From: a virus
Taxonomy: Duplodnaviria > Heunggongvirae > Uroviricota > Caudoviricetes
Direction: 5' to 3' (one strand)
Length of the DNA: 64,000 nt
Virus record (IMG/VR): IMGVR_UViG_2925891887_000001
Shown: in pieces, positions 2,010 to 55,370 of the stretch
How the letters are laid out: each line of letters opens with the position of its first letter
How positions within the stretch are numbered: position 1 is the first letter of the stretch
Position numbers and translations under genes: made by a program
The notes under the pieces: generated by a model
Databases searched by the model: none
The model's input: the letters and a program-made list of their open reading frames with translations, nothing else
Told to the model about the DNA's origin: nothing

Positions 2010-3569
2010 CTAATCTCGTTTCAGAACTCCAAAATCGAATGCGCCATCAACAGGCAATACACCTTCTGCAAAGCCAGGTGTGGTGTCGATGATGTGTTTT
2101 CGCTCATAAGAGTGAGACAACAGGTATTTGTTGCTAATGTCAATGAAATCAGTGATAAAACACACGTTTGCCTGATTCTTCTTGGCTCGTAAGCCACGAC
2201 CGACACGTTGTCTCATTTCAACTTCTGCTTTCCCACCACCAGCAAGAATGACCGCACCAACGCTTGGCACATCAACACCGACATCCAGAATAGTCGAGCC
2301 TATTAAAACATCTATGTCGCCAGACGCTAAACTGTTCAGCTTTGCTTGCCTTGTCGACTGGTTCGATTCCCCATAAATGAAGTCAACTCTAAGGCCGGAC
2401 TCTTTCATCATTTCCATCAGGATTTGCCCGTGGCGTTTAAGACGAACCAGAGTCATACAATTGAGAGAATGTTGCTTATAGAGCAATGCTTCGCGAACAA
2501 TGGCCTCATTACGTCCCAAATTATACACGATCCCCAACTGATAAGCCTTTTGGTAGGCAGTGCTCATACCTACTCTAAAATTGAGGTGTTTGTTGGCAAG
2601 TTCTGCCTTGATTCTGGCCTCGTCCGGCTTGTAGGCAACTTTATGATAAAGGAAGTATGGCTTTGCCAGAATGCCTCTATCAATCAGGTACTTTTCCGTG
2701 ACTTTTATTTCAATTCGCCCGGCCACTGCCATCAGACGCATGTTGGCTTCCGTAGAATCCTTCATGAACGGCGTTGCCGTAAGCGCCAGGCGATAGTCTG
2801 CGTTCGCACATAATCTGGCAATGTCATAGAAATTAGAGCCTGAAGACTCATGCGCCTCTTCCAGAATAAGAAGAGAGACACTTGAAAGGAAGCGTTTCAC
2901 CAAGTCCCGACGTTTGAGGTGGTAGCTCTTCTTATCTGGAGTTGCATCGCGTGGTGGTTCTTCAAGGAAACTTGCCAGAGTTTGAACTGTAGCGACGTTG
3001 ATATGTCGTGATACCTGGAACTCACCCGAGCCAATGACTCCAACCTTTTGGTCTTTTAACCACGGTTCGCCATTTTCGGCGCGGTAGTCGATGGATCTCT
3101 GGAAGTTTTCGGCCATCTGAAACATCAGAACAGAGCGGGTTGTTAAAAATAATGTCATTCGACCGATACGTGCAGCTGCTTTGCAGGCAACATTAGATTT
3201 CCCGCCACCAGTAGCGATCTGCGCAATCATCATTCCCTCTCGAACCAGTGTTTCCACAGTCTGATCCTGATATGCATAATCAGGATTGTATGGGAATGGG
3301 TTGACCGCCGGATTTGGCTTTCCAAGCGCCGGAGCTTTGTCTTTGCGGATATGAACACATTTGATGCCCGCCTTGTTCAAGTTCGCCGCTACAGGCTTGG
3401 CAAAGCCAGCAGGGAACGAGTTTTTACTCCAGTTGAACATCGTGCTTGTGCCCTTCCAGTCGCCAGTCTCGACTTCGTAGCTCAACATCTGTTGCACCAG
3501 TTGCTTTACCTTGTCATCTGCGCCAGAAATAAGTGCATTTACTGCGTTAGATACAATCCGAACAGTCAT
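2010..3569 (-). CDS. Superfamily 2 DNA/RNA helicase (DEAD/DEAH-like)
   Basis: Walker A TGGGKS, motif II LILEEAHE, motif III LTATP, motif VI QRVGRGLR in the 519-aa translation. Confidence 0.75.
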   Translation of the reverse strand: MTVRIVSNAVNALISGADDKVKQLVQQMLSYEVETGDWKGTSTMFNWSKNSFPAGFAKPVAANLNKAGIKCVHIRKDKAPALGKPNPAVNPFPYNPDYAYQDQTVETLVREGMMIAQIATGGGKSNVACKAAARIGRMTLFLTTRSVLMFQMAENFQRSIDYRAENGEPWLKDQKVGVIGSGEFQVSRHINVATVQTLASFLEEPPRDATPDKKSYHLKRRDLVKRFLSSVSLLILEEAHESSGSNFYDIARLCANADYRLALTATPFMKDSTEANMRLMAVAGRIEIKVTEKYLIDRGILAKPYFLYHKVAYKPDEARIKAELANKHLNFRVGMSTAYQKAYQLGIVYNLGRNEAIVREALLYKQHSLNCMTLVRLKRHGQILMEMMKESGLRVDFIYGESNQSTRQAKLNSLASGDIDVLIGSTILDVGVDVPSVGAVILAGGGKAEVEMRQRVGRGLRAKKNQANVCFITDFIDISNKYLLSHSYERKHIIDTTPGFAEGVLPVDGAFDFGVLKRD

Positions 3570-37605: not shown

Positions 37606-38025
37606 ATGCTAAATTATCATGACAATACGCGTTCTATGCAGACGATCCGCACCAATACTGCGGTCATCGACAGCTTTCCTATGCGTATTCACAACAGTGA
37701 AGACGCAGTAGAAGTGCGACGTATGTTGTGCCGTGAATCAGCTAACCGCCAGCACTTCATCGTCACTTTTAAGAGCGATGTGGCGCGTGCCGAAAAGATC
37801 TCTAATTCTACGTCACTGGTTAAACCGTTGGCCGAGGTTGTCGCTAACGGTAAACGAACCTCTTTTGTTTTAGATGTTGCTGAACAATATCCTGACTTGA
37901 AGTGTTTAGATCGTGATATTTCTTCACGAATCAAACAAGTTGTAGAGTCTTTTATGAAGAAATTCTGTAAAATCGATGATATGGAACCATCAACGGCACA
38001 GAATACTTCATGGCACCATCTCTAA
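37606..38025 (+). CDS. Hypothetical protein
   Basis: 139-aa ORF from track. Confidence 0.35.
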   Translation: MLNYHDNTRSMQTIRTNTAVIDSFPMRIHNSEDAVEVRRMLCRESANRQHFIVTFKSDVARAEKISNSTSLVKPLAEVVANGKRTSFVLDVAEQYPDLKCLDRDISSRIKQVVESFMKKFCKIDDMEPSTAQNTSWHHL

Positions 38026-38783
38026 TTGGTCAGGCGAACAGATTAATCCCTGAAATAGAAGACTACAGCAAGGTCTTGTCTGAAATGCCGAGAGCGACGA
38101 GAATTATCGCTCTCGGTGAGTTCTATTTTATCTCCCGAGGTTTCGATCTAATTCGATTTACCGAATACGAGCTTGTTGATTCGGCCTATGAACGCTGTAT
38201 TGTTGGCGAGTGTCTTGAGTCATGTGATCCTGATTACCAAGAGCAGGAAGTTAAGCGACTCAAACGTGCTGGTTACACACCTCTTGAGATAGGAGCAGAA
38301 ATTGAATCCTACAAGTTGCATGTGGGGCAGCCAGTCCAAACAGTCTTCCGCGTGGCCTACTGCGAGTTTCCAATCAAGGATAAATCTGGAGTAAAAGTCA
38401 GCGCCAAGCAGATTAGAGGGGTTTTTACTCATGCTGATTATATGGGATTAGGCATCGCAAGTTTTGCTTACCTTTATCTCGTAGATAAGTATCAGTACTT
38501 GGTTTGCGATACGTTACAGACGGTAAAAGGCGCAACTCTTTGGGCTGTGAGTATGCGCAAACATGGACTGGTCGAAATTTACGATACGAAGAACGAAAAT
38601 TTTATAGAGGAATTGGGTGAGGATGCCTGTGGCGTAAGTGGTTTTATTCCGTGGGATATCGGTAAGTCTGACGGAGGCCAGATGCGAAGACGTGAAGAGT
38701 GGGGGACTAATAAAATCAATCTCACCCCAGGTGCTTGTACTCATATAGTGAACATTCTGACTAAACGATCTATGAATCAATAA
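38010..38783 (+). CDS. Hypothetical protein
   Basis: 257-aa ORF from track; followed by intrinsic terminator. Confidence 0.35.
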   Translation: MAPSLIGQANRLIPEIEDYSKVLSEMPRATRIIALGEFYFISRGFDLIRFTEYELVDSAYERCIVGECLESCDPDYQEQEVKRLKRAGYTPLEIGAEIESYKLHVGQPVQTVFRVAYCEFPIKDKSGVKVSAKQIRGVFTHADYMGLGIASFAYLYLVDKYQYLVCDTLQTVKGATLWAVSMRKHGLVEIYDTKNENFIEELGEDACGVSGFIPWDIGKSDGGQMRRREEWGTNKINLTPGACTHIVNILTKRSMNQ

Positions 38784-38805
38784 ACCCGCTACGGCGGGTT
38801 TTTTG
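38784..38805 (+). terminator. Rho-independent terminator
   Basis: acccgc-tacg-gcgggt stem followed by TTTTT. Confidence 0.7.
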
Positions 38806-38932
38806 TTATTAAGCCCCCCCTATGTACCTATCATTAAACCTTTACACCGCAGCCGTAGGCATTTAGGCTATATCACATATAAGAAAACAAGTTGTTTCAG
38901 ACGATAATTATATACGCAAAGGGAACTCTCCA

Positions 38933-39601
38933 ATGACCAAGATCTTTGTGGTTGGCGGCACAAAGGGCGGGCCTGGCAAATCCACCGTTGCCCAGCAAAT
39001 TGCCGTTTGCCTGAAAGTCAAAAAGAAGAAGAAGGTTTATATTACCGATATAGATATTCAGCGCACGACAACGAGCTGGTGTGAAGACCGTCGACAGAAC
39101 GAAGACCTTGAGCTGATTCCTTTCGCATACGTTCAGGATGACATCATTAAGCACCTAAAATCGCTTCAGGGTAGAGCTGAGTTTGTAGTGGTAGATGCTG
39201 GTGGCTTCGACTCCGAAATTCAGCGACAAGCGATGCTGATGGCTGACGTTATCATTATCCCGCTGCGTCCTAAGCGTCGTGATTTGAAATCTTTACGTGA
39301 CATCGATCCTATTATCGACAATGTTCGCAATGTAAACGATAAAGTGAAGGTCCGCGCGGTCATGAACCAGTGCCCGGCTTTGCCATCACAAGTGTCTCGC
39401 ATTCTGGCGGCTAAAGAGATTGTTGAGACGTTTGGCATCGAGTCTGCGCCAGTCAATCTATATAACCGCAACGTCTATGATGATGCGGAAGAGTCTGGTC
39501 GTTCTATCTTTGAAATGACCGGTAGCGAGCGCGACAAAAAGGCGGAAGCCGAGTTTGAAGAATTTGTAGATTATCTGTTGAGTCTGGAGGAAGAAGAATA
39601 A
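38933..39601 (+). CDS. ParA/ParF-like partition ATPase (type Ib)
   Basis: Deviant Walker A GGTKGGPGKST, small size (222 aa), acidic C-terminus. Confidence 0.8.
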   Translation: MTKIFVVGGTKGGPGKSTVAQQIAVCLKVKKKKKVYITDIDIQRTTTSWCEDRRQNEDLELIPFAYVQDDIIKHLKSLQGRAEFVVVDAGGFDSEIQRQAMLMADVIIIPLRPKRRDLKSLRDIDPIIDNVRNVNDKVKVRAVMNQCPALPSQVSRILAAKEIVETFGIESAPVNLYNRNVYDDAEESGRSIFEMTGSERDKKAEAEFEEFVDYLLSLEEEE

Positions 39602-39960
39602 TGTCCATGAAAATGGGTGACCTAGCAAAGCGCAAAGAGCCTGATGCACCGGCTAAGAACACAACTCCTTTGCGCCAACCAGTCAGACCACAGGGACGCC
39701 CGACTCGTGGCAAAGAGAAAATTAAAAGCCGCACAATGTCACTGGAGGACGAATACTTCGAACTGCTGGAGATGATGAAGTTCATCCCTCGCTTCGAGAA
39801 GTTCACTCGTTCTGACGTGATTCGTGCTGCTATTTTCCATCTTGCGGAGAAGACACCGCAGGAAATCGAGGACATCGTGAAACTTAACGAGGCGATCACA
39901 GCTGCCGATGTCACGATGCGTACCGATGAAATTAAACGCGAGTTGATGAAGAAAGGGTGA
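39601..39960 (+). CDS. Partition centromere-binding protein (ParG/RHH-like), putative
   Basis: Small basic protein coupled to ParA (start overlaps stop); unstructured basic N-terminus, C-terminal helix-rich region. Confidence 0.5.
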   Translation: MSMKMGDLAKRKEPDAPAKNTTPLRQPVRPQGRPTRGKEKIKSRTMSLEDEYFELLEMMKFIPRFEKFTRSDVIRAAIFHLAEKTPQEIEDIVKLNEAITAADVTMRTDEIKRELMKKG

Positions 39961-40011
39961 TTATATTGGGCGTTTGTTACGCCCAATATATGAGTTGAAG
40001 GATAGACACCA

Positions 40012-41718
40012 ATGGAATCGATAGAAGTATTTTTAAAAAATTTTTTGGACTCAGATCATCGGGTTGCTGTCATAAAAGGAAATTGGGGAGTAGGTAAAAC
40101 GCATTATTGGAATAGCTTTTATACTAAACATTCTAAAAAATTAGATTTTAATGCATATTCATATGTTTCTTTGTTTGGAATAAATTCTATTGGAGACATT
40201 AAAAAAGCTCTTTATCATTGTGCCACACCAATTAATGAAAAGAAATATAAAGAACTGATTTTATCTGAAACGGATCGAACTATGATTCGTTATAGAAATG
40301 GGTTTTGGGGATGGTTGAAATACAACTCCTTGTCAAAATTTATAATACATTTTGGAAAGAACGATTTTTTTGGGTTCAAAACTGATAATCTGCTGTCATC
40401 TCTTGAGTATAAATTTGTTAATAATTATTTGGTTTGCATTGATGATATTGAACGAAAAGGTAGTGCGCTAGAAATTAAAGAGATTATGGGGGTAATTGAT
40501 GAGTTGGCAAGAAGAAAAAATTGCAAGGTTGTTCTAATATTAAATGAAGATAACTTACATGAAGAAACTGCACAACAACAGTTTTTAGAGTATAGAGAAA
40601 AAATAATTGATGTGGAAATAAAATACGATCCCACGCCTGAGAAAAACTTAAGAAAAGTTTTTTATGAGACTGACCCTGATTTTCTTTTGTTAAAAAACCT
40701 AGCAAATGATTTAAACATCAAAAACATTAGAATATTAAATAAAATAAAATCATCTCTAGTTATATTTAGAGATGTGCTAAAGTTAGCAGAGGATAAGGTT
40801 AGAGAAAGTTTTATTAATAGATTGGTCTTATTTTCAGTGGTTTACTATTTTGGTGTTCCTAGCGTTGATTATGCTTCATTTAAGGAGTCAATCAAAAATA
40901 TACATGCATTCGACTATATGTTAGATGATAAAGATGAAAAGGAAGAAGTTAACTCTGTATATTCATTTGTTAATAGCCTTGATGTTATTTATGAACGAGC
41001 AGAAAGTGCTTTCGATGATGATATAGATTTTTACCTTAAGAACGGTTATGTTTCTTCTGAAAGCAATATTCTAAATATAATAAAAGAAAAAAATGAACAA
41101 TATAGAGATAATAGGGTTTTATGTGAGGTTTATAAAATTTGGGATGTTTTTAGAAACTCTTTTAAAGATAATGAATCAGAGTTTATTTTTCAAATTGAGC
41201 GCGTAATTAACGATAGTCTGTTGCGTATACCAATTGGACAGTTCGTAGGTTTAATAAATGTCCTAATTAAATTGGATAGAGATTGTAATAATATTATAGA
41301 GGCATATGCAGATGCTTTTGTTAATAAAGACAATGCGTATGCTACATTTAATTCTTTGCGAGTAGAGATCTTCGGAAATGAAGAATTAGGTTTCAGAATT
41401 GAAAAAAAATTGAAAGATAGAAATCCAGATGACTATAACTTAGATAAAATTATAAAAAAAATAGCTGGTGGAAGATTTAACCATAGTGATGTGAATATTC
41501 TTAACAGTTTTTCTAAAGATGATTACGTAAACTGGATATTATCCTGTGATCAGGATGCTTTGAATTTAGTAGAAGAGACTATGCTCAAGTTCAAGGGTAT
41601 GCAACACCCGACAGACGAACAGAAGAGCATCACTGATAAAGCAATAGAAGCTTTGGAGGAAGTTGCTTCAAAATCAACACTTAATAAGCTGCGTGTTAAT
41701 AAAATACTCAATCATTAA
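40012..41718 (+). CDS. KAP-family P-loop NTPase-like protein, low-GC cargo gene
   Basis: Walker A GNWGVGKT and Walker B LVCIDDIER about 120 aa later (KAP-like spacing); strongly AT-rich versus flanks; bracketed by hairpin 39962-39990 and palindrome 41728-41785. Confidence 0.55.
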   Translation: MESIEVFLKNFLDSDHRVAVIKGNWGVGKTHYWNSFYTKHSKKLDFNAYSYVSLFGINSIGDIKKALYHCATPINEKKYKELILSETDRTMIRYRNGFWGWLKYNSLSKFIIHFGKNDFFGFKTDNLLSSLEYKFVNNYLVCIDDIERKGSALEIKEIMGVIDELARRKNCKVVLILNEDNLHEETAQQQFLEYREKIIDVEIKYDPTPEKNLRKVFYETDPDFLLLKNLANDLNIKNIRILNKIKSSLVIFRDVLKLAEDKVRESFINRLVLFSVVYYFGVPSVDYASFKESIKNIHAFDYMLDDKDEKEEVNSVYSFVNSLDVIYERAESAFDDDIDFYLKNGYVSSESNILNIIKEKNEQYRDNRVLCEVYKIWDVFRNSFKDNESEFIFQIERVINDSLLRIPIGQFVGLINVLIKLDRDCNNIIEAYADAFVNKDNAYATFNSLRVEIFGNEELGFRIEKKLKDRNPDDYNLDKIIKKIAGGRFNHSDVNILNSFSKDDYVNWILSCDQDALNLVEETMLKFKGMQHPTDEQKSITDKAIEALEEVASKSTLNKLRVNKILNH

Positions 41719-41727
41719 TAGATTATG

Positions 41728-41810
41728 ACCTGCTTCCGTATGTATTTAATAAGTTACTTATTATTTGTATATACAGAAGCAGGTCTTTTAAAGACGCCCA
41801 CCAGAACAAG
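41728..41810. repeat. Near-perfect palindrome; inverted copy of element at 7055-7135
   Basis: gacctgcttccgtatgtatttaataagttacttattatttgtatatacagaagcaggtc; reverse complement matches 7078-7135 with about 2 mismatches. Confidence 0.8.
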
Positions 41811-41890
41811 TCCCTTCCGTTTCCACTTCCAAAAACTGCCACCAGTCGCTATCATCCGCTCATTGTGATAAGTAAGTAACTACCTACCAG

Positions 41891-42640
41891 GTGAGCCACA
41901 TGAGCCAAATCTTTTTCGATACCATCGACAACGACCAGTACGACTTCATGACAGAGTGGAATACCGCTGTTATGGACAAGTGGGTTGCTGAAAACATTGG
42001 TTTGTCGCGCTGCAAAGACGAGGCTGAACTGTTTGAGACGAAGTGGTTTGATTACCGCGATATGCATCCTCTCATGGCCACCTGTCTGTTTACGGAGGCA
42101 TACAAACGTCAGTACTCAAATATCATGCTGACGCACGGTCGTGAACACTTTGAAACAGCTCCGTTCACCACCGGGTTAAAACGCTTGCCTTATCAGGAGT
42201 TGTCGACTGCTAATAAAACGTCGCTATGGAAAGCACGCCAGTTTGCGGATCGCTATTGCTGCTCATACGACTACTTTATCTCCACTGTTCTTTCCGCAGC
42301 TGCACGACGTCTGTGGGACAAGCTGCCTCGCCCACAGCATTTGTGGCAGCCAGAACTGATTGAGATATTTGAAGAGAAATTAGCCAGACGCGCAACAACC
42401 CGTCTGGATGACTCTCTGGTTAGCTTTAAGCATATGGGAGACATGCAGTTCAACCCGATTCAGGAAAGCTATTTTGAGTGGATTCTGGAGCGTTTGCGCA
42501 CCATCCCTCGCAGTAAGCGCATACGCGCAATTTTCTCCGCTATCTGGCTAATGGAAATCGTTCCAGAGCGCCTTATTTCCGCCCACTTTCCAGAAGAACT
42601 GGAAGAAGCACGGCGGTTTATTGATCCCCTATCTAATTAA
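41891..42640 (+). CDS. Hypothetical protein (replication module)
   Basis: 249-aa ORF immediately upstream of DnaB-like helicase. Confidence 0.35.
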   Translation: MSHMSQIFFDTIDNDQYDFMTEWNTAVMDKWVAENIGLSRCKDEAELFETKWFDYRDMHPLMATCLFTEAYKRQYSNIMLTHGREHFETAPFTTGLKRLPYQELSTANKTSLWKARQFADRYCCSYDYFISTVLSAAARRLWDKLPRPQHLWQPELIEIFEEKLARRATTRLDDSLVSFKHMGDMQFNPIQESYFEWILERLRTIPRSKRIRAIFSAIWLMEIVPERLISAHFPEELEEARRFIDPLSN

Positions 42641-42683
42641 CTAATACTAGAAAACAATTTGTTTAAAAAACAAAGGAAAGCAC

Positions 42684-44024
42684 ATGACCGAACTTTGCCA
42701 TACAGGACGCGGGCTGTCCGAAGAGTTTGATGAAGATTTCCAGAACAGACTGACGGCATATTTTTGTCGTGATCACGAGTTTCTTACTCGTGCGGGAGAT
42801 CTGGTTGTGCCTAGCCAATTTGCCAATGCGGCCAATGCCATATTGGTTAATATGGTTTCGGGCTATTACCGTATGTACAAGAGCGCGCCCTCTTCATCTG
42901 CAATTCTGGATATGCTTAAGCGTGCGAAACGCGATAAGACTATCCGTGAGGAACTATTCGCCGATGTTGTTGTTGCGTTTAAGCGCATCCTTGCAGAAAA
43001 ATTGTCCGATACCTCGTACATGGTTGACCAGGTATCAACCTTCGCAAAAAGCGTAGCGTTTGATGATGCTCTGATTAAGGCTGCTGAACTGAAAGAGAAG
43101 GGCGACTTTCAGGGGGCGATGGCAATCATGGCCAAGGTTCAGCAGATTGGATCGAACGAAGCGACCGGAATCTATGACTACTACACCTCCGCAAGTGAGC
43201 GATTGAAAGCGCGTGAATATGAGGCTTCAGAGGAGTATGTACCAAACAGTATTACAACTGGACTCCCTCTTCTCGATAGGTTGCTGTACCAAAAAGGCTG
43301 GGCAAAGCGCGAAATGGTGCTCTTCATGGGGTTCGCTAAATCCGGTAAATCGACCGCAATGGGTGAGTTTTCCATAAACGCAACGCTTGCTGGCTACAAT
43401 GTTCTGTATCTCTCGCTGGAGGTTCACACCAACATTTTGTCCGACCGTTTTGATGCAAGATTGTCGGAGACGGAAATGTCCAAGTTGGTGGAACGGCGCG
43501 ATGAAGTTCATCGTAAGTTGGCAGAGTTGGGAGCCTCTAAGGGGATTGGTAGTTTGTGGGTTGTTGAGCGTCCGTCAGGAAGTATGTCACCGGCAGATCT
43601 GGACCGTATGCTTAACAGCATGAAAGCCAACGGCATGGTGCCTGACATGGTTGTTGTCGACTACGCAGATTTGATGCGTGCCAGTTATGACCTTCGTGAT
43701 GATCGCGCCAACATTCGTAGTATCTACACCGATTTACGTGCTCTTTATGACAAGCATAACGTTGCTGGGATCACGGCATCGCAGACAAACCGTGAAGGTG
43801 GCGCGTCAGAAGTTGCCACAATGATGCACGCTGCCGACAACATCGAAAAAGTACGTATTGCTGACCTGGTAATAACGATCAACAAAACCGAAGAAGAAGA
43901 AGCGAAAGGAGAGGCTCGTCTCTACTTTGCCGGTTCACGTAACCAGCAGGGAGGGATCAGCATTCGCGTTAAACAAAACCTCGAACAAATGCGCTTCATT
44001 GAGCGAATCTTAGACGTTACCTAA
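42684..44024 (+). CDS. DnaB-like replicative DNA helicase
   Basis: Walker A GFAKSGKST, RecA-like C-terminal domain with DYADLM and arginine finger region; 446 aa. Confidence 0.8.
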   Translation: MTELCHTGRGLSEEFDEDFQNRLTAYFCRDHEFLTRAGDLVVPSQFANAANAILVNMVSGYYRMYKSAPSSSAILDMLKRAKRDKTIREELFADVVVAFKRILAEKLSDTSYMVDQVSTFAKSVAFDDALIKAAELKEKGDFQGAMAIMAKVQQIGSNEATGIYDYYTSASERLKAREYEASEEYVPNSITTGLPLLDRLLYQKGWAKREMVLFMGFAKSGKSTAMGEFSINATLAGYNVLYLSLEVHTNILSDRFDARLSETEMSKLVERRDEVHRKLAELGASKGIGSLWVVERPSGSMSPADLDRMLNSMKANGMVPDMVVVDYADLMRASYDLRDDRANIRSIYTDLRALYDKHNVAGITASQTNREGGASEVATMMHAADNIEKVRIADLVITINKTEEEEAKGEARLYFAGSRNQQGGISIRVKQNLEQMRFIERILDVT

Positions 44025-44105
44025 AAAATAAGCGTGGAGAACACCTCCACGCTTGATTCATTGGTGAAACAACTTTTCTTTTGCCAAACCACAAAAGAAA
44101 AACAC

Positions 44106-45287
44106 ATGAGCCTTTATGTTATATCAACATTTAGGTTGGTCACAATATTGCCTGTTAAAAGTGGAATTATCGTGAGCGAGCTGAAAGAGCTAATTGCCGA
44201 ATTAGATTTTGAACAATGGTTGGATACTGAAGGTATCGTTTATCGACGTGGAGGCGTGAGTGCTCGCGGTCGTGAAGTGAATATCAAAGAGTGTCCGGTA
44301 TGCGGCAGCTCCAACTGGAAGGTATATTTCAATCTGACCAGTGGCGTCGGCAAATGCTTCGCTGGTGATCATCCCGAAGAGATTCAGTTCAATAAGCTGG
44401 TCTTCCTCAAGCACTACAGCGGTAAATCACGACGACAGTTCGAGGAATATGTGCAGAACGCTCTTCTTTCCCAGGGGTGGACACCAAAGAAAGAAGAGCT
44501 AGTGCTTGCAAGCACAGTCGAGTTAGAGGGGCCAGTTGCACTCCCTCGTCATTACGAGCTTCCTATAGATGGCCGTCTTCCAGACTATCTGGTTGAACGA
44601 AACATATCACCTGAAATGGCAAAGTATTTTGACCTACGATACTGCGTCGAAGGCAAGCACGCTTATGTAGATCCGTATACAGATCAGGTAAAAGGGCAGA
44701 TATTCGATATGCGAATACTGATACCGGTTTACGATCTGGATGGGGTAATGAAGACATTTCAGGGACGAGACATTACCGGTACAGCAGAACGCCGCTACCT
44801 CTTTCCTATGCAGCTTCCAGCTTCAGGTAAATTTCTCTACAACGGCCATAATGCAGTCGGCAAACAGACTGTAGTTGTCTGTGAGGGTTCGTTCGATGTT
44901 ATGGGGGTCAAACGAGCTATTTTCGACGAAGAAACATTACGTGATTACGTGGAGCCAATAGGAACGTTCGGGATGCATCTATCTGGCAACACCACTCAGG
45001 ATGCAGAAGATCAGTTGGGCGCGTTCCTGACGCTCAAGGCGCGTGGATTACGTAATGTGATCATGATGTGGGATAGTGAAAAGCAAGCTATACGAAACAC
45101 GATGGCCGCAGCCAGGCGACTGACCAGTATTGGTCTTAATGTCAAAGTTGCGTGTTTGGGCGAGGAAGGACTCGACCCCGGCGATGCGACACCGGGGCAG
45201 ATTATCAAAGCCTACTATTGCGCAAAACCTTATTCACGACAGCTTGAACTTTTAAGCAAGGTAAAAGGTATAGCAGCATTAGTTTGA
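44106..45287 (+). CDS. DNA primase (zinc finger + TOPRIM)
   Basis: Zn-binding-like CPVCGSS...KCFAGDH; TOPRIM motifs VVVCEGSFDVMGV and MWDSE; track ORF starts 44034 but includes a hairpin, so start is probably 44106 or 44173. Confidence 0.7.
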   Translation: MSLYVISTFRLVTILPVKSGIIVSELKELIAELDFEQWLDTEGIVYRRGGVSARGREVNIKECPVCGSSNWKVYFNLTSGVGKCFAGDHPEEIQFNKLVFLKHYSGKSRRQFEEYVQNALLSQGWTPKKEELVLASTVELEGPVALPRHYELPIDGRLPDYLVERNISPEMAKYFDLRYCVEGKHAYVDPYTDQVKGQIFDMRILIPVYDLDGVMKTFQGRDITGTAERRYLFPMQLPASGKFLYNGHNAVGKQTVVVCEGSFDVMGVKRAIFDEETLRDYVEPIGTFGMHLSGNTTQDAEDQLGAFLTLKARGLRNVIMMWDSEKQAIRNTMAAARRLTSIGLNVKVACLGEEGLDPGDATPGQIIKAYYCAKPYSRQLELLSKVKGIAALV

Positions 45288-46532
45288 ACCAGTATTAGTC
45301 ACGTAAACATTGACCGAAAATGATTTAACTTCTGTGTTGAAGTTGTCAGTCATTACCGCGAGGTAGGCATTCTTGGTATCTCTGAATTGCTTCAGGATGA
45401 TTTGAACGTTATCGGTGCAAACAAACGAGGTAGCCAGATTGCCTCCTTTCTCTGAAAAATCCTTCAAGAAGGTGCAGTCAACTTTGCCATCATTAGCGGT
45501 GAAGACGGCATCATCACCCTGCCAGGTAAATGTTGCGTTAACGCCTTTATCAATGGATTTAGCAATAAGTCGCTGAGTGTCAGATTTGGCATTTTGCTGT
45601 TTTGAAGGCGAACGGAACGTACCTTTTGCTTTCATTGCAGCAACGTTTTCGCAGCCCGTTTCGTCATCTTTATCGCAAGCAGCTTGGTAAAGCTCTGATG
45701 CTTTCCGATAATCCTGTTTGACGCCCAATCCCTTAAGATACATGTAACCAAGGTGGTTCATGGCATAATCATTTCCTAAGCTGATTGCTTGTTCTAAAAG
45801 ACTTCTGGCCTTCGAATAGTCTTTTTTTATACCTTCTCCATGCATCAACTTGTATCCAAGCGCGCTCATGGCGTTATTATTTCCTAATTCAGCTGCTTTC
45901 AAGTACCACTTAATTGCCTCTTTATTGTTGCGCTTAACAGCAACACCATCGTCGTACATAGAGCCTAGCCCATACATTCCTGCGGCATTTCCACTATCCG
46001 CAGCCTTTTTATAAGATTTAAATGCTTTCTTGTAATCTTTCGGAACTCCCTTACCGTATTGATATAAATATCCCATATAGGCAAGCGAAGGTATATCACC
46101 AGCTTCTACTGCTAGTTTGTGATATTTTAAAGCAGCTTCTGGGTCCTCCTTTCCAGTCCAACCTCGTTCGTATATAACGGCAAGATTATGGTAAGCACTG
46201 CCGTTGCGAGCATTTCCTGCTAGTTTGTAGTACTCAACGGCCTTATTTAGATCTTTATCTACTCCCTTCCCAATTGTGTACATAACCCCAAGCGCATAAT
46301 ATGCTACTTTATCTCCCTTTTCTGCGGCGAGATCGATCCACTTCTTGGCCTCTACTAAATCCTCATCAAAGCCATTAGCCCCATCCAAATAATTTGTCCC
46401 TAACGCACTTTGTGCTGTGGTATCTCCTGCGGTGGCGGCGTCGATCAGCGTTTGTTTATTATCTGCGTTAACGTATCCAGGGCCGAAAAGCAAAGCTAAT
46501 GCCAGCAACGATGAAGGTTTTATGAGTTTCAT
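45279..46532 (-). CDS. Sel1-repeat (TPR-like) secreted protein
   Basis: Signal peptide (MKLIKPSSLLALALLFGPGYVNA), then at least 8 Sel1-like repeats (A..YxLGxMYxxGxGVxxDxxxAxxWYxKAA); only minus-strand gene in this block. Confidence 0.7.
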   Translation of the reverse strand: MKLIKPSSLLALALLFGPGYVNADNKQTLIDAATAGDTTAQSALGTNYLDGANGFDEDLVEAKKWIDLAAEKGDKVAYYALGVMYTIGKGVDKDLNKAVEYYKLAGNARNGSAYHNLAVIYERGWTGKEDPEAALKYHKLAVEAGDIPSLAYMGYLYQYGKGVPKDYKKAFKSYKKAADSGNAAGMYGLGSMYDDGVAVKRNNKEAIKWYLKAAELGNNNAMSALGYKLMHGEGIKKDYSKARSLLEQAISLGNDYAMNHLGYMYLKGLGVKQDYRKASELYQAACDKDDETGCENVAAMKAKGTFRSPSKQQNAKSDTQRLIAKSIDKGVNATFTWQGDDAVFTANDGKVDCTFLKDFSEKGGNLATSFVCTDNVQIILKQFRDTKNAYLAVMTDNFNTEVKSFSVNVYVTNTGSN

Positions 46533-52373: not shown

Positions 52374-53636
52374 TTACTTTGCATAGTCGCCCAATTTTAA
52401 TATTTCGCGCTTATATTCATTAACCATGCTACTGGATTCAGTATAAATTCGATTTAAAAGATTATCGTTATCTTTATTTTCATTTATCTTAATTAGTGCT
52501 AATTTATATTCATAGTCATCAAATGCCACAATTAAATGGTGGCCTGGGATTATATCTTCGTCACTCTTAAAGTATATATCTTCAAGTATGTAATCTAGTT
52601 GATTAGATTTTCTTTTCTCGATGTAATCTTCAGCCATAGCTATTACATCATTCCTGTCATTTAACCTGTTTTTTTCGGAAGGCACATCTTCGTAATGTTG
52701 CACGATTGAACAACCAATAAGGCGTGGGATGTAAACGTCAAAATGAGTAACTCTATCATTCGCGGTTTTAAGTAGTTCCTCAAAGTAGTTTCTTACATGT
52801 AAAGGCAACTTCTCAAAGTAATCATTAATTATAGGAGAACAAGGAGTTTTATAATTCATAAGAACCGACGGTACGAGCTTTGGGTGTCGAAACATCCAGT
52901 CCCTTTTAACGTCCGATGGAACATAATAACTTTTAATGATATTATCAAAATAATTTATCATTCGAGATTTGAATATTTTGTTGAATCTAAGGTTTATGAA
53001 TGTATCCAGATAAGGCATATTTGAATAAGCATCATCAAAAAATATTTCATCATTGAAAAAATCATATTTATTCAATAAACAACACAGTTTTTCCGAATTA
53101 ATATGTTCACAATAATCGATTTTTAATCCAAAGATAGCAATGATCAACTTCATCTGAGGTGGGATTTTAAAAATTAATTGTGACACATACGCTCTTTTTT
53201 CCTTGAGACATTCCCCATCAATATAAAATGAACCATCCACATACTCAAATATATTAATAATATGCTTCACATACTGTATTACCTCATGCTGTCTTACCAA
53301 TGGATAATATAGTCTATGTAACTCATCGCTGTTTAAATTAATTTTGTGTTTATCGATAATTTGTTTTGCAAGAAGACATAACTCATCATGTTGATTTAAT
53401 AAGGAATCAAACCATTGTTTAAATGCACTCTTTCGCATTTCGAACAATGATTCAGTTGTTAATTGAAGGGCTGAAAAAGCTGCTTTTGCACTTTTTCTCG
53501 CTTCGTAGGCATTCCATGCTGTTGCTATAAAAGCAAATGCTGTAGCCAATGTTCCAACAGTTTGACCATTTAAAACAACCCAATCCCAAAAAATGACGGT
53601 GAGCAGTAGTATAATAATGAAAATTAAAAAAGGCAT
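52374..53636 (-). CDS. Hypothetical membrane protein, low-GC cargo gene
   Basis: 420 aa; N-terminal hydrophobic segments (FLIFIIILLLTVIFWDWVV; LATAFAFIATAW); strongly AT-rich; only minus-strand gene here. Confidence 0.5.
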   Translation of the reverse strand: MPFLIFIIILLLTVIFWDWVVLNGQTVGTLATAFAFIATAWNAYEARKSAKAAFSALQLTTESLFEMRKSAFKQWFDSLLNQHDELCLLAKQIIDKHKINLNSDELHRLYYPLVRQHEVIQYVKHIINIFEYVDGSFYIDGECLKEKRAYVSQLIFKIPPQMKLIIAIFGLKIDYCEHINSEKLCCLLNKYDFFNDEIFFDDAYSNMPYLDTFINLRFNKIFKSRMINYFDNIIKSYYVPSDVKRDWMFRHPKLVPSVLMNYKTPCSPIINDYFEKLPLHVRNYFEELLKTANDRVTHFDVYIPRLIGCSIVQHYEDVPSEKNRLNDRNDVIAMAEDYIEKRKSNQLDYILEDIYFKSDEDIIPGHHLIVAFDDYEYKLALIKINENKDNDNLLNRIYTESSSMVNEYKREILKLGDYAK

Positions 53637-54266: not shown

Positions 54267-55370
54267 ATGAAAAATAGCTTTGACAGAGCACGCGCTGCGG
54301 AGAACACCTCAAAAGAGGCGATTGAGTATCTCGAAAGAGCATCTCAAATGCAGGCCGTTATGATCTCGCAGGTCAGCAATGACATGAGATTCTCGGACGC
54401 ATTCATGTTATTCACTCGCTTATCTCTGCTGATAACAAGACGTCGGCCAGAGATCGCTGTTCATTGTATTTTGATACATGTTTTGCCGCACATTGCCGAT
54501 GTAAAAGTAAGTGACATTAATAGGTTCATGGTGAACCAACTGGTCAACCCACTAATACTGGATGGCAAAATTGTTATGGGCCGCCGCGTTTTCTCTCTGA
54601 TGAAGCAGTTCCTTAGCTGGTGCGCCTTCCAGGGGATGATAGACGTGTCACCGTTAAACGATATGTCACTAAACAAAGTTGCCGGTGGCGCAAAGCCCAC
54701 ACCTCGCGAGCGGAAGCTGACCGACGCAGAGGTATGGGTGTTCTGGAATATATGGGACTACTTCAATGTGTGCGCTGGTACAAAATGGGCGGCCAGGCTG
54801 TGTCTTGTATCCGCAAGACGACCTGACGAAGTACTGCGGGCTAAAAAAAGTGAGTTCAATCTTAAGCGTGGGGTTTGGAATCAAGGCAAGAGGAACAAAT
54901 CTGCCCGTGAGCATTCGCTGCCTTTAAGCACATTAATGCGCACATGTATTGAAGAGTTGTTCGAATACGGTAAAGGCAGCCAGTGGCTCGTGCCTTCGAA
55001 TAAAAAAATCGGGAAAGACCTTCCTATGTCTAAAGTGGCAATAGCCCAGGCATTACGTCGTATCCTGGAACGACCAGAACTGATGGAGCTTGAGCCATTT
55101 ACACCCCGAGACTTGCGCCGTACTGCGCGTAGTTACTTCCCAGCATTAGGCATAAGCCAGGAGGTCTCACGCAAAATCATGAACCACAGTCTTGAGGGGA
55201 TAGATCGAGTCTACGACCGGCACGATTATATGGACGAGATGCGAGACGCCTTAGAAAGTTTCTCGACGTACATCGCATCAATCGTAGAGCAACCGGATTT
55301 AGACGAAATTGACCACAAATTCAAGGGAGATCGTCTATCAACAGAGCTTATTCGTGTAAATTTTTCATAG
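54267..55370 (+). CDS. Tyrosine recombinase / integrase family protein
   Basis: C-terminal catalytic region with conserved Arg (LVSARRPDEV), box II-like PRDLRRTARSY, then NHSLEGIDRVYDRHDY with candidate catalytic Tyr; 367 aa. Confidence 0.65.
   Translation: MKNSFDRARAAENTSKEAIEYLERASQMQAVMISQVSNDMRFSDAFMLFTRLSLLITRRRPEIAVHCILIHVLPHIADVKVSDINRFMVNQLVNPLILDGKIVMGRRVFSLMKQFLSWCAFQGMIDVSPLNDMSLNKVAGGAKPTPRERKLTDAEVWVFWNIWDYFNVCAGTKWAARLCLVSARRPDEVLRAKKSEFNLKRGVWNQGKRNKSAREHSLPLSTLMRTCIEELFEYGKGSQWLVPSNKKIGKDLPMSKVAIAQALRRILERPELMELEPFTPRDLRRTARSYFPALGISQEVSRKIMNHSLEGIDRVYDRHDYMDEMRDALESFSTYIASIVEQPDLDEIDHKFKGDRLSTELIRVNFS

Follow-up and report, generated by a model that had tools for sequence, protein, structure and literature searches.

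A low-GC KAP-type NTPase gene carried as exchangeable cargo in a variable slot of an SSU5-like phage-plasmid, and its putative role in phage defence

We analysed a 64-kb stretch (64,000 nt, hereafter the window, to which all positions refer) of the virus record IMGVR_UViG_2925891887_000001, and in it a gene for a KAP-type P-loop nucleoside triphosphatase (NTPase) which a preliminary description had placed between the partition and replication modules. The window is, judging by sequence, an Escherichia coli SSU5-like phage-plasmid, because of its plasmid and phage matches. The region is 99.5–99.8% identical to non-mobilizable E. coli plasmids of ~110 kb (MF554642.1, NZ_CP020118.1), the KAP gene is 100% identical to the copy in NZ_CP195468.1, and the flanks match Escherichia phage Cyrano (pLF82) and Salmonella phage SSU5 as well as several hundred Klebsiella, Enterobacter, Salmonella and Citrobacter plasmids. 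The locus holds the following features.

39962 to 41721, + strand: exchangeable cassette of upstream hairpin and KAP-type NTPase gene, delimited by homology breaks and base composition
39962 to 39990, + strand: cassette-specific hairpin with a perfect 12-bp stem and a 5-nt loop (folding z-score -4.2)
39998 to 40002, + strand: Shine-Dalgarno-like AAGGA, 9 nt 5' of the ATG, read from the sequence
40012 to 41718, + strand: gene for a KAP-type P-loop NTPase, soluble, 568 amino acids (aa), stop included (from the open reading frame (ORF), homology and a structural model)
40012 to 40776, + strand: N-terminal NTPase domain, aa 1–255, with an AAA+/ORC-like ASCE fold
40078 to 40101, + strand: Walker A motif GNWGVGKT, aa 23–30, with G23, W25, G26, G28, K29 and T30 invariant in 46 homologues
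40429 to 40455, + strand: Walker B motif LVCIDDIER, aa 140–148, with C142, D144, D145, E147 and R148 invariant in the same homologues
40777 to 41715, + strand: C-terminal all-alpha domain, aa 256–568, family-specific and the more divergent part of the protein
41727 to 41789, + strand: backbone palindrome followed by TTTT, read as a conserved intrinsic terminator that closes the slot (folding z-score -6.9, conservation)

The 568-aa reading frame reported earlier, starting with ATG, was borne out, as was its AT-richness relative to its neighbours. The GC content of the KAP ORF is 0.295, with 0.236 at third codon positions, against 0.47–0.50 and 0.51–0.57, respectively, for parA, the parA partner gene, the conserved gene ORF249 and the dnaB-like gene. 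This is the lowest value among all 1707-bp windows of the 64 kb (mean 0.461, standard deviation 0.042), and GC stays at 0.27–0.32 along the length of the cassette at 39962–41721.

Homology to Cyrano and SSU5 ends at 39961, one base past the stop codon of the parA partner gene (TGA, 39958–39960), which forms the left edge of a variable slot, and returns at 41722–41728. Six different contents were found between the same flanks among relatives. Apart from the KAP gene, present in this window and the other elements with KAP alleles, the slot holds a DUF2971 protein in Cyrano, SSU5 and plasmid p2 of Klebsiella Kp1604 (PADLOC candidate PDC-S31, E 3e-41), and two or three small unassigned genes in Cronobacter, Klebsiella and SSU5. 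On the opposite strand, one relative (L014) has a 255-aa GIY-YIG protein that matches PD-T4-3 (PADLOC E 1.3e-23) and the CMoRE structures 9U7U/9U75 (E 2e-15), and another (L015) a 352-aa protein without assignment. CMoRE is a validated modification-dependent restriction enzyme (PMC12923530). An independent DefenseFinder survey detected PD-T4-3 on SSU5-group elements, with the KAP gene, which DefenseFinder does not model, left unflagged (10.1101/2025.09.12.675607). As a core-bounded site with unrelated alternative genes, including a homologue of a validated enzyme, the slot is a defence hotspot of the phage-plasmid.

Searches of PLSDB with tblastn, against a background of roughly 704 SSU5-like records, gave matches for the DUF2971 protein, the CMoRE-like protein and the full-length KAP protein in 236, 158 and 113 plasmids, respectively, these being counts per plasmid and not per slot. 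The KAP gene occurs in 27 of 5426 complete E. coli genomes, with all copies on ~110-kb plasmids and none on the chromosome. The breaks of homology at 39961 and 41722, the foreign composition and the presence in only ~113 of ~704 related plasmids bear out the cargo status given to the gene in the preliminary description, and it is almost certainly a dispensable, exchangeable and functional passenger.

The upstream hairpin, already described as a perfect 12-bp stem, is confirmed as significant (none of 200 shuffles was as stable) and moves with the KAP gene, since homology to Cyrano and SSU5 stops at 39961. It is identical in the element with the 77% allele (see below), while different, canonical hairpins with a GC stem and a T-run stand at the corresponding site of the Salmonella and Klebsiella alleles. 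A function as par centromere was ruled out by its absence from Cyrano and SSU5 and by the other sequence in the Salmonella and Klebsiella alleles. It has no U-tract and is separated from the ATG by 21 nt. Lying between the par genes and the cargo, it likely serves as an attenuator or in RNA stability.

The downstream palindrome (41727–41785, again with none of 200 shuffles as stable) and its T-run were detected in all ten relatives examined, which between them have six different cargos, whichever strand the cargo is on. Its right arm, TATACRGAAGCAGGTCTTT, is invariant in all ten, and the only variation in the palindrome is G-U wobbles, which keep pairing in the + strand RNA. As a backbone element present with every cargo, it was ruled out as part of the cargo or as a boundary repeat of the cassette; we read it as a backbone intrinsic terminator which would end the par/cargo transcription unit. 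No Rfam-type RNA family was detected at either hairpin, only chance miRNA and snoRNA matches (E~0.5).

These results modify two earlier claims. The gene had been described as insulated by flanking hairpins and, although both are significant, the downstream one belongs to the backbone and the upstream one has no U-tract; “insulated” is therefore an overstatement, given the missing U-tract, the 21 nt to the ATG and the lack of a promoter-like site between them. Similarly, the moron-like layout proposed for the gene holds for its foreign composition, but no promoter of its own was found, its terminator is that of the backbone and the gene apparently lies within the par unit. From the par genes to the ATG, the + strand has no sigma-70-like site. 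We infer that transcription from the par promoter reads through, with attenuation, into + strand slot cargo, which would place expression of the cargo in the plasmid-prophage state.

Of 12 promoter-like sites in 38800–42800, 10 were on the minus strand within the AT-rich ORF (40480–41200), and the total for this region was not above shuffle expectation. Such minus-strand sites are expected for AT-rich foreign DNA and would fit spurious transcription, intragenic or antisense, as well as H-NS binding. Beyond the slot, the intergenic region 41727–41890 is strongly conserved from E. coli to Klebsiella and SSU5 (CCCTTCCGTTTCCACTTCCAAAAA ... CCAGTCGCTAT ... TAAGTAAGTAACTACCTA) and includes a second inverted pair, AGTTACTTA (41752–41760) and TAAGTAACT (41873–41881). 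This region may be a promoter or operator of the replication module.

The genes on either side of the slot agree with the location between partition and replication modules given in the preliminary description.

38933 to 39601, + strand: parA, 222-aa small ParA-type partition ATPase (NCBIfam ParA_partition, E 1.9e-33), left backbone
39601 to 39960, + strand: 119-aa parA partner gene, presumed centromere-binding protein, adjoining parA in all relatives
41891 to 42640, + strand: ORF249, conserved gene on the right flank of the slot and first of the replication module, kept in all relatives
42684 to 45287, + strand: replication module with a DnaB-like helicase (42684–44024) and a primase (44034–45287), from the annotation of near-identical relatives

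The order of genes is tail fibre, lysis genes, a small variable region, parA, the 119-aa partner, the slot, a gene of 241–249 aa, the DnaB-like helicase and the primase. The parA gene is ~100% identical to that of the relative L013 and 97.6% identical to that of Cyrano. The 119-aa partner had no family match above threshold and ORF249 no match in Pfam, NCBIfam or PADLOC, while Pfam DnaB_C is precomputed for the Klebsiella and Salmonella orthologues of the helicase. The KAP protein could be an accessory replication or partition factor, for example an ORC/Cdc6- or DnaC-like initiator or helicase loader acting with the adjacent DnaB and primase, or a partner of ParA. Replication initiators and helicase loaders (Orc1/Cdc6, DnaA, DnaC-like) are conserved, essential components of their replicon with a DNA-binding domain, and the KAP protein does not fit this description. 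Relatives do not keep the gene as a conserved replication or morphogenesis component, with ~113 of ~704 plasmids having it, and we consider such a factor very improbable.

Four alleles of the KAP gene were found in the slot of E. coli, Salmonella and Klebsiella elements, all with an intact reading frame and a GC content of 0.295–0.314. The first is that of the window (99–100% identity, found at 99% or more in 6 complete E. coli genomes) and the second (77% identity) occurs in E. coli and Shigella, including O104:H4 plasmids. The third (42%) is from Salmonella and Citrobacter, and the fourth (38%) from about 75 Klebsiella plasmids. When the window is compared with an element carrying the 77% allele (L013), the flanks are 99–100% identical but the KAP gene only 67–99%. 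Identity within the gene is mosaic, at 95–99% near codons 65–130, 86–93% elsewhere in the NTPase domain and 67–79% in the C-terminal part (regions 40200–40400 and 41200–41700 of the window, each compared against L013), hence recombination breakpoints lie inside the KAP gene.

For the same pair of alleles, the ratio of nonsynonymous to synonymous substitution rates (dN/dS) is 0.15 in the NTPase domain (dS 0.36) and 0.25 in the C-terminal domain (dS 0.79). Diversifying selection in situ is not supported as the source of allele divergence, because dN/dS is low and dS is far above the near-zero divergence of the flanks; together these values indicate old functional alleles that were swapped by recombination into near-identical backbones. 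All four low-GC alleles are under purifying selection. This bears on whether the gene is a passenger in E. coli, silent or in decay and without function today. A GC content of 0.295 makes silencing by H-NS plausible, no promoter of its own was found and the gene is rare in E. coli (27 of 5426 genomes). However, the frame is intact in four alleles with dN/dS of 0.15–0.25 at dS of 0.36–0.79, the catalytic motifs are invariant in 46 homologues and the family comprises at least 1,182 clusters with a fixed architecture, so we regard a passenger without function as extremely improbable.

The Walker A and Walker B motifs noted earlier are present at aa 23–30 and 140–148, with an insert between them. 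An alignment of 46 sequences contains 35 invariant positions, including the motif residues named above and also Y194, R195, E196, K197, N238, R240 and K244, and N178 is conserved in at least 90%. The assignment to the KAP type also stands: the protein passes the cut-off of the Pfam profile KAP_NTPase (PF07693) with 25.7 bits against 20, aligning aa 18–258 with positions 22–282 of 293, and PF07693 is precomputed for nearly all homologues. A match to nSTAND3 was below threshold (19.6 against 27.2 bits) and confined to the P-loop. Definitions of the KAP family rest here on secondary accounts and Pfam. The AlphaFold model (pLDDT 85, pTM 0.68) has an alpha/beta NTPase domain followed by an all-helical domain at aa ~260–568. 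The insert between the Walker motifs is ~60 aa long (aa ~76–133), helical and non-hydrophobic, with low model confidence. From motif positions, N178, R195 and R240 are candidates for an AAA+-like sensor-1, arginine finger and sensor-2, respectively, and the C-terminal domain is presumed to be a sensor or specificity domain.

No transmembrane segment was found in the protein. The maximum 19-residue Kyte–Doolittle mean is 1.6, within the C-terminal domain, and the insert has no hydrophobic stretch. Transmembrane helices associated with the NTPase domain are typical of the KAP family but absent in PifA (PMC13001434), hence the lack of such segments places the window protein among a soluble, PifA-like minority and its KAP membership stands. 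Sequence searches for relatives with solved structures, using the protein and the 46-sequence profile, gave no match. Among the best 150 of 1,638 matches, the C-terminal domain was never fused to other N-terminal domains, and the family, with at least 1,182 clusters at 50% identity, has a fixed architecture of NTPase and helical C-terminal domain. STAND/Avs proteins differ in that the window protein has no effector domain and matches ORC/Cdc6 better than STAND.

PADLOC returned a sole match, PDC-S49 (E 2.1e-21), which was also obtained for 10 diverse relatives (60–110 bits, down to E 7e-32). The PDC set comprises 145 candidates chosen by their embedding in BREX, DISARM or type I restriction-modification (RM) loci (10.1101/2024.01.29.577857). 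PDC-S49 resembles the window protein in being a single protein of ~600 aa whose KAP-type NTPase is N-terminal and followed by a long C-terminal region, but the match covers mostly the N-terminal 250–420 residues of the 620-residue profiles and leaves the C-terminal third unmatched. Furthermore, PDC genes lie inside BREX, DISARM or RM loci and the window gene in a phage-plasmid slot. On the profile matches, we consider the window protein a relative of PDC-S49 which is not demonstrably of the same cluster.

Other KAP NTPases provide functional precedents. In a 2026 study, four KAP NTPases whose C-terminal regions are uncharacterised protected Enterococcus faecalis against phages by up to 6 logs; EF_KAP, the one mutagenised, is membrane-anchored and needs Walker B and the C-terminal region for defence (PMC13552941). 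By description, not by sequence, this class is similar to the window protein, being one protein with a KAP NTPase domain and a C-terminal region of ~300 aa without a known domain or structural match. The differences are the two transmembrane helices of EF_KAP, of which the window protein has none, and the Firmicutes origin and linkage to small serine recombinases of the class. The “P” of KAP stands for PifA, a soluble KAP NTPase of the F plasmid which excludes phage T7 (PMC13001434). Like the window protein, it is plasmid-borne, soluble and acts as one protein, with the motifs GxWGxGKT and hhhhDDxxR, and its VVMDDLDR aligns with Walker B of the window protein. PifA is longer, however, at 741 aa, the alignment (hhalign probability 43%, 18% identity, 172 columns) covers the NTPase domain only and the C-terminal regions are unrelated. 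In addition, pifA is in a pifC-pifA operon under the PifC repressor, whereas the window gene lies beside par genes and ORF249 with no pifC-like gene.

QatA is a soluble KAP NTPase that binds single- and double-stranded DNA and forms heptamers or octamers (PMC13279940), and could serve as a model of how an effector-less KAP assembly might engage nucleic acid. QatA works with QatB, QatC (QueC-like) and QatD (TatD), however, and no such genes were found near the window gene or the homologues examined, nor did the PADLOC profile of QatA match at E<=1. Tmn, of the YobI family, senses a phage protein through its variable regions, and its response is driven by the turnover of ATP (PMC13001434). It is also a single-protein NTPase defence, but has two transmembrane helices within the P-loop domain and forms a membrane decamer, unlike the soluble window protein, which gave no match to Tmn in PADLOC. 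We conclude that the window protein is a new soluble member of the KAP-type single-protein class.

Homologues outside phage-plasmids were found in varied surroundings. In a Pseudomonas prophage, the homologue is located between leftward early genes and an S24-type repressor, and a site beside the prophage repressor is a classic place for exclusion genes expressed in lysogeny. An OLD-family ATPase-TOPRIM nuclease is encoded within 1 kb 3' of the homologue in Shewanella algae, and in Oleispira the homologue adjoins IS66 and a T5orf172 gene. The GC content of homologues is below that of their surroundings in Pragia, Oleispira, the Pseudomonas prophage and the phage-plasmids (for example 0.27 against 0.47 and 0.41 against 0.57).

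A role in defence against phages or other mobile DNA is probable, if circumstantial, and is the best-supported function on three grounds: the nature of the slot as a defence hotspot, PDC-S49 as the sole PADLOC match and the place of the prophage copy beside a repressor. In this role, the KAP gene would be transcribed by attenuated par read-through, expressed in the plasmid-prophage state and protect the lysogen, and hence the phage-plasmid, against other phages or mobile DNA. The N-terminal AAA+/ORC-like NTPase would act as a nucleotide-dependent switch or oligomerisation motor, using Walker A and B together with N178, R195 and R240, while the fast-diverging C-terminal alpha-solenoid may recognise a phage-derived trigger and set specificity. 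We hold par-driven expression and an NTPase switch with a C-terminal sensor with less confidence than the defence role itself. Without a nuclease, protease, TIR or membrane domain, the output would have to come from the ATPase assembly itself, which might consume NTP, or bind and remodel the DNA or replication proteins of phages. This effector-less output is the weakest and a speculative step, for which QatA and PifA are the nearest precedents. A bolder version, which we think doubtful, is that the family is a widespread single-protein immune system with an undescribed mechanism, in which sensing by the solenoid would lead to ATPase assembly on phage DNA or replication proteins and a direct block of replication or NTP drain, with alleles swapped, alongside CMoRE and DUF2971, in a par slot expressed in lysogeny.

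Several observations weigh against a defence role. The protein contains no recognisable effector domain, H-NS may silence a gene of 29% GC in E. coli, and read-through expression is itself something we infer. Three of the six homologues examined outside phage-plasmids (Pragia, Vreelandella and Pseudomonas frederiksbergensis) are lone genes among housekeeping genes with no defence neighbours. No functional assay of a family member appears in the papers found, and PDC-S49, on which a full-text search found no papers, is itself a candidate. The PDC-S49 match is partial, at profile positions 8–319 of 624 (up to about 378 in other models), likewise in the 10 relatives, one of which reaches position 479, and two other PDC candidates were inactive when assayed in a native host (10.1101/2024.12.20.629700). 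The PDC-S49 label is thus a lead and not proof, given the partial match, the candidate status of the set and these two inactive members. Klebsiella plasmid p2 of Kp1604, the single SSU5-like plasmid with a demonstrated effect on plaquing, lowers phage plaquing and plasmid uptake (PMC8969562), but its slot holds DUF2971 and no KAP gene. With a type I RM system also present, p2 was ruled out as an experimental link to the KAP gene.

The same plasmid is relevant to a function in element competition or maintenance, in which the gene would exclude related phage-plasmids or plasmids, or act in addiction or stability. An SSU5-like Klebsiella plasmid that cuts plasmid uptake as well as plaquing (PMC8969562) would suit such a function, as would the position of the KAP gene beside par genes, the KacT/antitoxin pair which relatives have in the slot upstream of parA, and the plasmid-borne location of many KAP genes according to secondary accounts of the original KAP description. 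That plasmid lacks the KAP gene, however, no cognate antitoxin or partner gene was found and the gene is solitary in every context examined, while chromosomal and prophage copies are hard to square with plasmid incompatibility. Competition or maintenance is therefore unlikely as the sole function, and it overlaps with the defence role because defence against mobile DNA in general is compatible with both.

Phage variable regions house anti-defence as well as defence genes, and the KAP gene could instead inhibit host immunity or, as another kind of lysogenic-conversion gene, alter host physiology. SSU5-group elements carry the Rad anti-retron system (10.1101/2025.09.12.675607), and the helical C-terminal domain has no assigned function. 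In the slot, though, the occupant with a validated relative is a defence enzyme, and relatives in the family were chosen as defence candidates found inside BREX, DISARM or type I RM loci. Most known anti-defence proteins are small, in contrast to a 568-aa ATPase, and solitary chromosomal copies of the gene occur outside phages. We find a counter-defence or conversion gene distinctly unlikely, and defence remains our preferred function. The interpretation in the preliminary description, hedged as it was, is largely correct, with abortive infection or exclusion as a candidate phenotype, and the observation of the KAP gene is sound, if not categorically new.

SSU5-like phage-plasmids are frequent in clinical E. 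coli, Shigella, Salmonella and Klebsiella, and cargo in their variable slots shapes the phage susceptibility of strains, with a bearing on phage therapy and on competition among mobile elements. The KAP gene stands alone, its natural alleles differ for the most part in the C-terminal domain, and other elements have in its slot the homologue of a restriction enzyme of proven function. Should it prove active, a large, uncharacterised family of PDC-S49 relatives would be validated, and KAP-type defence would gain a soluble model that is tractable in E. coli. The location of the slot, with the par genes on one side and the operon terminator on the other, also suggests a simple rule for spotting lysogeny-expressed cargo in SSU5-like elements.

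Further variable positions and other genes were noted elsewhere in the window. A second variable slot lies just upstream of parA (37606–38783; compare 2317–3151 in the relatives L001 and L002). Here the window and three relatives (L013, L007, L009) have two + strand ORFs of 139 and 257 aa, without a Pfam or PADLOC match, and the closest relative (L001) and Cyrano have a KacT-type GNAT toxin and a DUF1778 antitoxin on the other strand. Two islands of low GC (about 0.29–0.35), at 463–951 and 52374–53636, both on the minus strand, contain ORFs of 162 and 420 aa, respectively, which had no Pfam or PADLOC match; these islands may be further foreign cargo. At 2010–3569 (minus strand), a 519-aa ResIII/DEAD-box helicase gave partial matches to PADLOC PbeA profiles, over their C-terminal two-thirds (E 4e-23). 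The minus-strand gene at 45279–46532, convergent with the primase gene, encodes a 417-aa Sel1-repeat protein (Pfam E 5e-56). At this position L013 has a TPR protein, and L007 and p2 of Kp1604 have a 388-aa protein, so that it looks like another variable position. Finally, a tyrosine recombinase (Phage_integrase, E 7e-10) at 54267–55370 on the + strand, found likewise in the Klebsiella p2 plasmid, probably provides the multimer-resolution or integration function of the element.

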